A stretch of DNA of 64,000 nt from Sphyrna mokarran (lineage: Eukaryota): positions 84,506,001 through 84,570,000 of the forward strand of contig JAGIQG010000013.1 of the NCBI GenBank assembly GCA_024679065.1. The letters are read 5' to 3'. Positions 45,988 to 48,900 of the stretch are shown piece after piece (position 1 is the stretch's first letter; the number at the start of each line of letters is the position of its first letter). The position numbers were made by a program, and so were the translations under genes. Below the pieces are notes generated by a model. The model saw only the letters and a list, made by a program, of their open reading frames with translations. It did no database searches and was not told the DNA's origin.

Positions 45988-48900
45988 CAGTGTGTGTAAA
46001 AGTATGCGTGTGTGTTGTGTGTGAGTGTGTGTATGAATGTTGTGAGTGTGCGTAACAGTGCATGTGTGTGGGGGGGGTGGGCCGGTGTGTAAAAGTATGC
46101 GTGTGTGTGTGTGTGTGTGAGTGTGTGTATGAATGTGTGTGAGTGTGACTTTGGGAGTGTGTGTAACAGCGTGTGTGTGTGTGTATGTGTGGGGTGGGCA
46201 GTGTGTGTAAAAGTATGCGTGTGTGTGTGAGTGTGTGTATGAATGTGTGTGAGTGTGACTTTGGGAGTGTGTGTAACAGCGTGTGTGTGTGTGTATGTGG
46301 TGGGTGGGGAGTGTGTGTAAAAGTATGCGTGTGTGTGTGAGTGTGTGTATGAATGTGTGTGAGTGTGACTTTGGGAGTGTGCGTAACAGTGTGTGTGTGT
46401 GTGTGTATGTGTGGGGTGGGCAGTGTGTGTAAAAGTATGCGTGTGTGTGTGTGTGTGTAAAACTGTGTGTAAGAGAGTGTCTATGAGTGTGCATGTGACT
46501 GTGTATATTTTTGTGTGTTTTTGAGAGTGTATGAATGTGTACGTGAGGGGTGTGGGGGATAGTGGGGGGTTGTGGAGGAATGTGGGGGAGCGTGTAGGAG
46601 GGTGGTGGGGGGTGTGGTTGAGTTATGGGGATGTGGGGGAGGGTGTGGGGAATGGTGAGGGGTGTGGTTGGGGTTGTAGAGGGATGTGGGGGAGGGTATG
46701 TAGGGGTAATGGGGGATGTGGTTGGGGTTGTGGAGAGATGTGGGGGAGGGTGTCGGGGGATGATGGAGGATGTGGTTGGGTTTGTAGAGGGATGTGGGGG
46801 AGGGTGTGGGGGGTGTGGTTGGGGCTGTAGAAGGAGGTGGGGGGTAGTGGGGGTGTGTGGTTGGGGTTGTAGAGGGATGTGGGGAAGGGTGTGGGAGGGT
46901 AGTGGGGGGTGTGGTTGGGGTTGTAGAGGGTGTGGGAAGGGTGTGGGAGGGTAGTGAGGGGTGTGGTTGGGGTTGGAGAGGGATGTGGGGAGGTGTGGGG
47001 GGTGATGGGAAGGGTGATGTGGGTTGAAGGGAGATGTGCAGGAGGTGTGAGGGGGGTGGTGGGAAGGGTGATGGTTTGGGTTGCAGAGGGAATTGGGGCA
47101 GAATGTGGGGAGTAGTGAAGGGTGTGATTGGGGTTATAGGGAGATGTGGGGGAGGGTGTGGGGGTGGTGCGAAGGGTGATGGTTGGGGTTGTAGGGAGAT
47201 GTGGGGGGGGTGTGGGGGGTGGTGCTAAGGGTGATGGTTGGGTTGGAGAGGGATATGGGGGAAGGTGTGGGGGTTTTTGGGGTAGGGGTGATAGTTGAGG
47301 TTGTACAGGGATGCGGGGGAGGGTGTGGGGGGGTGGTGCAAAGGGTGATGGTTGGGGATATTGCTAATTCTCTGTACCCCAGTAGGCTTGGATCTTCTCT
47401 CCATTCTGCAGTTCCACCACACATGTGTAGATGTCCCCGAGCGCAGGCTCAATGGACACATAGTTCAGGACTTGGAACATCCAGCTGGTCTGAAATGTGA
47501 GCAGCGAGGAATTGACTTGCGTGACAAGGGGCTGATTGTTCTTCAGGAAGGTGACCTGGGCCATGGGTGGGAAAAGCTCAAAGACAAAACAGTTCAGGAC
47601 AGTCCTGTGGCCCAAGGTGTTGGGTTCAGTTGGATAGAGCAGCACAGTGGGAATCTCTGGAAAGAAGGAAATTGAGAATGTGAAAGGGAGCGGGAAAGCC
47701 CCAACATGTTTTCCATACACATTTTCTTGCAAATCTCCATTTTCCAGCGCACCAGACAAGGAACCGTGACCATTGAGTGTCACCATGGAACTGTCTGCTA
47801 ATCCCACACAAACTCAGTCAACCCACTTGACTAATTTTAGACAACAAAACTCCATCAATCTCACTGATTTTAAAATTGTTAATTGCCATCACTGGGACAA
47901 AGAACAAAGGAAAGTCCAGCACAGCAACCGGCCCTTCGGCCCCACCAAGCCTGTGCTGATCATGATGTCCTTGTTAAACTAAAAAAAACCATTCTGCCCT
48001 TCGTCCCTATCCCTCTATTCCCTCCCTATCCATGTACCCATCCCGATGCTCCTTAAATGTTGTTAATGTTCCTGCTTCCACCCCCTCCTCTGAAACTGTG
48101 TTCCAGGCACCCACCCCTCTCTGTGTGAAAAACTTCTTGCACACTTCTCCCCCTTAAACTTCCCCGCCTCTCCCCTTGAACCTGTGCCCCCTTGTATAAT
48201 TGACTCTTCCACCCTGGGGAAAAGCCCCTGACTATCCACCCTCTCTGGGCCTCTCATCATTTTGTAGATCAGGTTCCCCCCTCAGCCTCTGTCTTTCCAA
48301 TAAAAACAATCCTAGTTTATCCAACCTCTCCTCATAGCCAACACCCTCGAGACCAGACAACATTCTGGTAAACCTTCTTTGCACTCTCTCCAAAACTTCT
48401 CCATACTTCTGGTAGTGTGGCACCCAGAACTGTACACAAGACTCCAAATTGTTCCCAACCATGGTTTTATATAGCTGCAACATGATTTCCCAACTCTTGT
48501 ACTCAATGGAAGAGAGTTCCAAACTCCCACCACCCTGGGTGGTGGGAAAAGCCCCCCAGTTTAAAGCTCAACCTCTCATTTTGAGTTTCTGTCCCTTCTT
48601 TGTCCTAGACTCTCCCTACCAGTTACTCTGAACATCTCAAAAACCTCACTCCATTCACACCCTCTTCACCTTCTAATTTCCAGAAAATGCTGCCCAAGTT
48701 TGCATTTAACCTCCTAGTAAATTAACCTTTGGGTTCCACTGATTAGACAGCACCTTCTAAACCCTTGACCACCACTGTTTAAAAAAATAAGGGCAGCAGA
48801 AGTATGGGGAAGCCCCAGCAGCGGCAGACTGGTGGAAGCAGACACATTGGCAACATTTAAGAGCATCTGGAGCATTTTTGTATAACTTAAAAACATTTAT

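Follow-up and report, generated by a model that had tools for sequence, protein, structure and literature searches.

A W-category MHC alpha gene of the Nds3L subgroup, paired with a WB-DS3-like beta gene, as the probable source of a beta2m-like Ig domain in Sphyrna mokarran

The 279 bases at 47378-47656 (minus strand) of the window, that is, the whole 64,000-nucleotide stretch of Sphyrna mokarran DNA that was analysed, are very probably the alpha2 exon (exon 3) of a W-category MHC alpha gene (WA) of the Nds3L subgroup, which is paired head-to-head with a WB-DS3-like beta gene. The products of these two genes probably associate into a membrane heterodimer of class II shape; alpha2 would be docked under its platform as beta2m is in class I. 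Of this explanation, the exon structure, the open frame, the gene pair, the splicing of alpha1 to alpha2, the register of the motif and the position in the tree were observed here. Whether MHC class I derives from class II is judged mainly on the evidence of W-category molecules. The locus adds nothing new conceptually; it offers a complete and apparently expressed Nds3L/DS3 pair that is usable for structural work, and it warns against relying on Y8, F37 and the terminal W, which are weak characters.

According to Okamura et al. (2021; PMC8713811), W-category molecules combine class II architecture with class I interface residues, and the WA alpha2 domain, for which the characters Y8, F/L37, L55, F/Y57 and W61 were named, clusters with beta2m. 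It was proposed there that exon shuffling of a WA/WB pair gave rise to beta2m and the class I heavy chain, a class II-first model built on an earlier proposal of Kaufman, whose commentary (PMC8812513) restated it and described the function of the W category as unknown. Thus, the motifs, the clade of WA with beta2m and the class II-first model had all been published before, and the resemblance described below is real but not new; the derivation of beta2m from an alpha chain is not a discovery, since it is already the published model. No structure or ligand for any W-category molecule could be found in the literature or in PDB sequence searches (best 60 rows each).

The WA gene occupies the minus strand in five exons, with GT-AG ends at all four introns and a single 262-codon frame that runs to a TAA, and it is apparently intact. 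The WB-DS3-like gene lies head-to-head with it on the plus strand. The features of both genes, with the evidence for each, are as follows:

54491..54575, minus strand: coding part of WA exon 1, start codon and signal peptide (28 codons plus 1 base); matched in tblastn by the orthologues of catshark and white shark at 43-46% identity, with a GT donor and a frame that runs on.
49873..50124, minus strand: WA exon 2, alpha1 membrane-distal domain (84 aa) with one N-glycosylation sequon; 74/84 identical to blue shark WA Nds3L alpha1 by eye, spliced to exon 3 in run X1.
47378..47656, minus strand: WA exon 3, alpha2 Ig C1-set domain; 77/93 identical to blue shark WA Nds3L alpha2 by eye, Pfam, phmmer, Dataset S2 register, AlphaFold2.
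45464..45588, minus strand: WA exon 4, connecting peptide and class IIA-type transmembrane helix; AG/GT ends, open frame, 60% to the catshark orthologue, match to the blue shark Nds3L row of Dataset S3; join to exon 3 inferred.
44340..44387, minus strand: coding part of WA exon 5, 15-residue cytoplasmic tail and TAA; motif search, AG acceptor and frame, match to the blue shark tail in Dataset S3; putative join.
43884..43889, minus strand: candidate polyadenylation signal AATAAA about 450 bases past the stop, from the sequence.
54576..57683, no strand: 3.1 kb separating the start codons of the divergent WA and WB genes (ATG-to-ATG distance 3109 bases), presumably with 5' UTRs and promoters, and with repeat-derived sequence.
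57684..57774, plus strand: WB (DS3-like) exon 1, signal peptide; 83% to a Triakis WB protein whose cluster mate is named WB_DS3_01.
60934..61209, plus strand: WB exon 2, beta1 domain with Q6, A32 and G35 present and T for D37; 83/91 identical to the Triakis WB protein.
G000:C335:84576558-84576839 onward, plus strand: WB beta2, transmembrane and tail exons, past the window within the next 14 kb; genome search.

The interval at 47378-47656 coincides exactly with one exon, bounded by an AG acceptor and a GT donor and in phase 1 at either end, and its stop-free translation of 92-93 aa is a C1-set domain (Pfam PF07654 C1-set, E 9.8e-15). Pfam assigned no family to alpha1 (best E 0.069). Searches by tblastn with orthologue tails did not return a last WA exon, which was located at 44387-44340 by a short motif search. 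A hydrophobic frame at 33979-34035 had been a candidate for the transmembrane exon, and was dropped after the real one was found at 45588-45464.

Splice support comes from one public run of one study (X1, presumed to be RNA) and covers the alpha1-alpha2 join: a 1504-base contig joins the two exons at 47656/49873, with CT..AC ends and 0 other letters over both exons. The remaining WA joins are putative, on the basis of splice sites, the reading frame and homology. The same contig continues for 727 bases beyond alpha2, which, by arithmetic only, would be accounted for by a transmembrane exon of 125 bases and a last exon contributing about 600. Runs X2 and X3 gave next to none of the exon words searched for, and no run listed is recorded as RNA.

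Several repeats lie in the introns. Arrays of a unit of about 69 bases, in both orientations, occupy 44430-45290, 52420-53420 and 53970-54430; a long GT/G-rich simple-repeat tract (45630-47350) lies beside the alpha2 donor; and WB intron 2 carries a satellite of about 25 bases (61330-64000). Open frames at 13210-14064 (minus), 1387-1980 (minus), 27275-28095 (plus) and 29577-30008 (minus) read like reverse-transcriptase fragments, which we take to be from CR1/L2-type LINEs.

Orthologues of WA were found in catshark, white shark, basking shark and sevengill shark, the last with a WB match too. The best database relative of alpha2 is a catshark protein with 68% identity across the domain. Homologue searches returned no protein at least 90% identical to the WA of the window, the nearest being at 68%, so that the WA chain of this species seems to be absent from the searched collection. 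Judged from aligned residues, the WA gene is likely an orthologue of the blue shark 'WA Nds3L' of PMC8713811. Among the best 60 rows, the best PDB sequence matches of the isolated alpha2 exon are beta2m chains, with a phmmer E of about 6e-13. This value, the catshark identity and the spliced contig with 0 other letters argue that the resemblance did not arise by chance.

The motifs quoted in the original prediction (LLYP, VTFLKN, L-T-F-Q-T-S-W-M-F and a final W) were all found in the alpha2 translation. So was the class IIA-type cysteine spacing that it had described (55 residues separate the cysteines, which are at positions 22 and 78), and alpha2 is indeed followed by a class IIA-type connecting peptide/transmembrane exon, which has a Cys and the glycine pattern G-x3-G-x2-G-x3-G. 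In the numbering of Okamura et al. (2021), alpha2 has Y8, F37, L55, F57 and W61 (Y7, F36, L52, F54 and W58 in its own numbering). The predicted register of its F and W with beta2m F56 and W60 was borne out by the phmmer alignments, in which L-T-F-Q-T-S-W-M-F is matched with the beta2m pattern L/M-S-F-x-x-x-W-x-F and no gap falls within the motif, and by Dataset S2, where human beta2m occupies the same columns (55, 57 and 61) as L55, F57 and W61 of alpha2.

It should be noted that this register rests on sequence alignments, as fold searches give no residue-level alignment. With 33 aligned sequences as input, AlphaFold2 modelled alpha2 confidently as an Ig sandwich (pLDDT 92.6). The TM-score of this model is 0.92 to beta2m and up to 0.93 to class II alpha2, and the fold-search Z-scores are tied (15.2 versus 15.1 and 14.9); by fold, beta2m and class II alpha2 could not be distinguished.

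The proposed hallmarks differed in how well they separate the families. The terminal W is present but does not discriminate, since 20 of the 22 class IIA rows have it, as do 7 of the 10 beta2m rows; likewise, the A-strand Tyr8, although present, was also observed in 11 of the 22 class IIA rows. Phe in place of the C-strand Trp is there as well and is not exclusive to WA, being found in four of the class IIA rows, three of which are the class IIA of this genome. The discriminating character is W61, with L55 and F57: W61 occurred in 21 of 22 WA rows and in all 10 beta2m rows, and was outside the four commonest letters of the 22 class IIA rows. F57 was observed in 13 of the 22 WA rows only, and the alpha2 of the window has the complete L-x-F-x-x-x-W-x-F motif. 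As to position 37, all three class IIA alpha2 exons found in this genome (G000:C1548:90541328-90541579, 90297915-90298166 and 90017141-90017392) have Phe at Trp37 and group firmly with class IIA in the tree; the class IIA rows of Dataset S2 have Trp37 in 30 of the 30 shown, of 32. Trp37, a character that PMC8713811 calls invariant in class II, was apparently lost independently in the class IIA of this shark. As Phe37 arose there too, single hallmarks can converge. The His four residues past the second Cys was absent from all six Nds3L rows and present in all 16 other WA rows and all 10 beta2m rows.

We built a maximum-likelihood tree from 83 C1 domains, hand-picked from 224 extracted ones and aligned over 93 columns, in which labels were given from motifs and source names; its rows included 22 WA, 10 beta2m and 22 class IIA sequences among others, and excluded near-duplicates as well as the majority of class IIB/IIA rows and of Ig repeats. 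WA and beta2m formed one clade (support 100/96), in agreement with the earlier claim that alpha2 is beta2m-like, and class IIA formed a separate one (100/98). Could this be a class II alpha gene, whether ordinary or non-classical, that acquired its beta2m-like residues by convergence? The naming of its orthologues by NCBI ('class II histocompatibility antigen alpha chain-like'), a 55-residue cysteine gap (shared by 21 of the 22 class IIA rows), whole-chain PDB matches led by HLA-DQ alpha (among the best 60 rows) and the Phe37 of this genome's own class IIA would all suit such a gene. However, the WA and beta2m clade persisted after the five hallmark columns had been removed (96/95), a topology forcing WA and class IIA together was rejected (p-AU 0.027), the true class IIA genes are on another contig with beta2m, and the beta2 domain of the partner is without the class IIB W61. 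We regard convergence as very unlikely.

It had also been suggested that the domain is a structural intermediate for the origin of free beta2m by loss of the alpha1 and transmembrane exons. The idea stands as the published model, but the domain itself does not appear to be a special intermediate. An ancestral-type gene especially close to beta2m would be in keeping with the complete L-x-F-x-x-x-W-x-F motif, and in the best tree beta2m nests within WA with low support (83/74); a topology forcing Nds3L and beta2m together was not rejected (p-AU 0.14), and nothing favours it. On the other hand, the alpha2 of the window nests in a derived six-row Nds3L subclade (100/98), whose rows have lost the His that all beta2m rows keep, its WB partner is without D37, and its mean identity to beta2m (0.32, compared with 0.30 to class IIA) is below that of nine of the 21 other WA rows, the other WA rows reaching 0.36-0.38. 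With 32% identity to beta2m versus 30% to class IIA, it is better described as a living cousin of beta2m than as a privileged intermediate, and the latter seems improbable, if somewhat less so than convergence. Least probable is a pseudogene fragment, or an orphan membrane-tethered beta2m serving class I heavy chains. The beta2m chains that head the matches of the isolated exon speak for it, but the alpha1 exon spliced ahead of alpha2 in run X1 refutes its simple form, the frame is open across five exons next to a WB gene, and the genome has a normal beta2m gene (G000:C1548:90854592).

The preferred reading, a WA gene of the Nds3L subgroup with its own WB partner, is also set among related loci of this genome. 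On contig C335, genome searches revealed three WA/WB pairs arranged head-to-head, near 83.83, 84.55 and 84.62-84.65 Mb. The first (G000:C335:83826896-83839001) comprises a DS5-like WA and a WB, and the last (G000:C335:84617376-84654645) a DS1-like WB and a DS10-like WA. Class IIA, class IIB, beta2m and class I-type alpha3 exons are carried by contig C1548. The location of W-category genes on a contig separate from the class II/beta2m/class I cluster is in line with PMC10751288, and an unlinked pair has been confirmed in axolotl (PMC12619710). Two class I-type alpha3 exons on C1548 (G000:C1548:91043357 and 91334515) have an in-frame TGA; they lie within an expanded cluster of similar exons and are likely pseudogenes.

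Of the class I-type platform residues that face alpha2, three of five are kept (beta1 Q6, A32 and G35); alpha1 V30 and beta1 D37 are both T, and the same changes are seen in the rows published for blue shark Nds3L and banded houndshark DS3. In class I, D37 of beta1 hydrogen-bonds W61 (PMC8713811). The WB beta2 domain has P57 and N at 61, as in banded houndshark WB DS3. As the residues named in PMC8713811 that are not kept comprise alpha1 V30 (T), beta1 D37 (T) and beta2 G61 (N), the WA/WB interface may differ in detail from that of class I. Pfam gave only a sub-threshold MHC_II_beta match for WB beta1. In this domain (60934-61209, plus strand) C12 is kept and Thr occupies the helix cysteine position (class I C164); the neighbouring strand carries a second Cys (column 27), a feature shared with published DS3 rows that possibly reflects a relocated disulfide.

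Prediction of the complex from four separate domains, with alpha2 as partner, reached a score of 0.39 versus 0.09 for the best of three controls, which, as a score that came with no list of contacts, gives the arrangement weak support; the runs agreed in at least 79% of contacts, and the partner pLDDT was at least 67. Of 78 solved pairs, 51 passed the mark applied to such scores, against 2 of 108 mismatched ones, and at 0.60 or below there were 5 of the 78 solved pairs and all 4 passing mismatches. Similar complexes have already been solved, so the score may reflect structures that the predictor had learned.

The molecule may be assembled as follows. WA and WB would pair via transmembrane helices with a glycine pattern, which in WA exon 45588-45464 is of class II type when compared with Dataset S3, into a heterodimer of class II shape, as expected from the family. 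In tiger salamander the WA and WB chains reach the cell surface only together (PMC8713811), and the shark chains might likewise arrive there only as a pair. Alpha1 and beta1 would form the platform and alpha2 would be wedged beneath it, with L55, F57 and W61 packing on beta1 Q6, A32 and G35, and with Y8 bonding to beta2 P57. The WA chain itself would descend from the WA-like chain that has been proposed as the source of beta2m.

N62, N69 and R76 are the contacts of class II alpha to the peptide backbone, and T143, K146, W147, Y159 and Y171, together with Y7, are class I anchors. By eye on the Dataset S1 columns, alpha1 has L, I and R at the former three positions (one of three kept), and WB beta1 has none of the five class I anchors T143/K146/W147/Y159/Y171, with G at Y7. 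As the peptide-anchoring residues are gone, we somewhat favour WA/WB being a non-classical surface ligand for an immune receptor rather than a classical peptide presenter. A further reading, which we consider possible but doubtful, takes the Nds3L/DS3 pair to be a remodelled W molecule: W61 would be docked without Asp37, the beta1 disulfide would have shifted from sheet-to-helix to two adjacent strands, alpha2 would do without the conserved His, and the resulting platform would be unlike that of class I, class II and other W subgroups, with a non-peptide ligand or none, while class IIA Trp37 would have been lost independently alongside. If this were true, a published character that orders class II before class I could arise twice.

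Among known systems, the WA Nds3L genes of blue shark and great white shark in PMC8713811 are the closest: the transmembrane segment, the tail, Y8/F37/L55/F57/W61, the loss of the His and a head-to-head DS3-like WB are the same, and the differences are species-level substitutions only (77/93 alpha2 and 74/84 alpha1 positions identical by eye in blue shark). With beta2m, WA alpha2 shares the C1-set fold, L55/F57/W61 in register, the lack of Trp37 and one clade. However, WA has alpha1 spliced in front and a connecting peptide, transmembrane helix and tail behind, whereas beta2m is a single free Ig domain after a leader; the cysteine gap is 54 in eight of 10 beta2m rows and 55 in WA alpha2; and position 37 is L in all 10 beta2m rows and F here, where the His is absent. 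Class II alpha chains (HLA-DRA/DQA and shark class IIA) have the same leader-alpha1-alpha2-connecting peptide/transmembrane-tail layout, cysteine spacing of 55, transmembrane glycines, terminal W and head-to-head pairing of A and B genes. In contrast with them, WA has W61, L55/F57 and F37 in place of Trp37, falls outside the class IIA clade, is without the N62 and N69 peptide contacts in alpha1, and is located on C335, whereas class II is on C1548.
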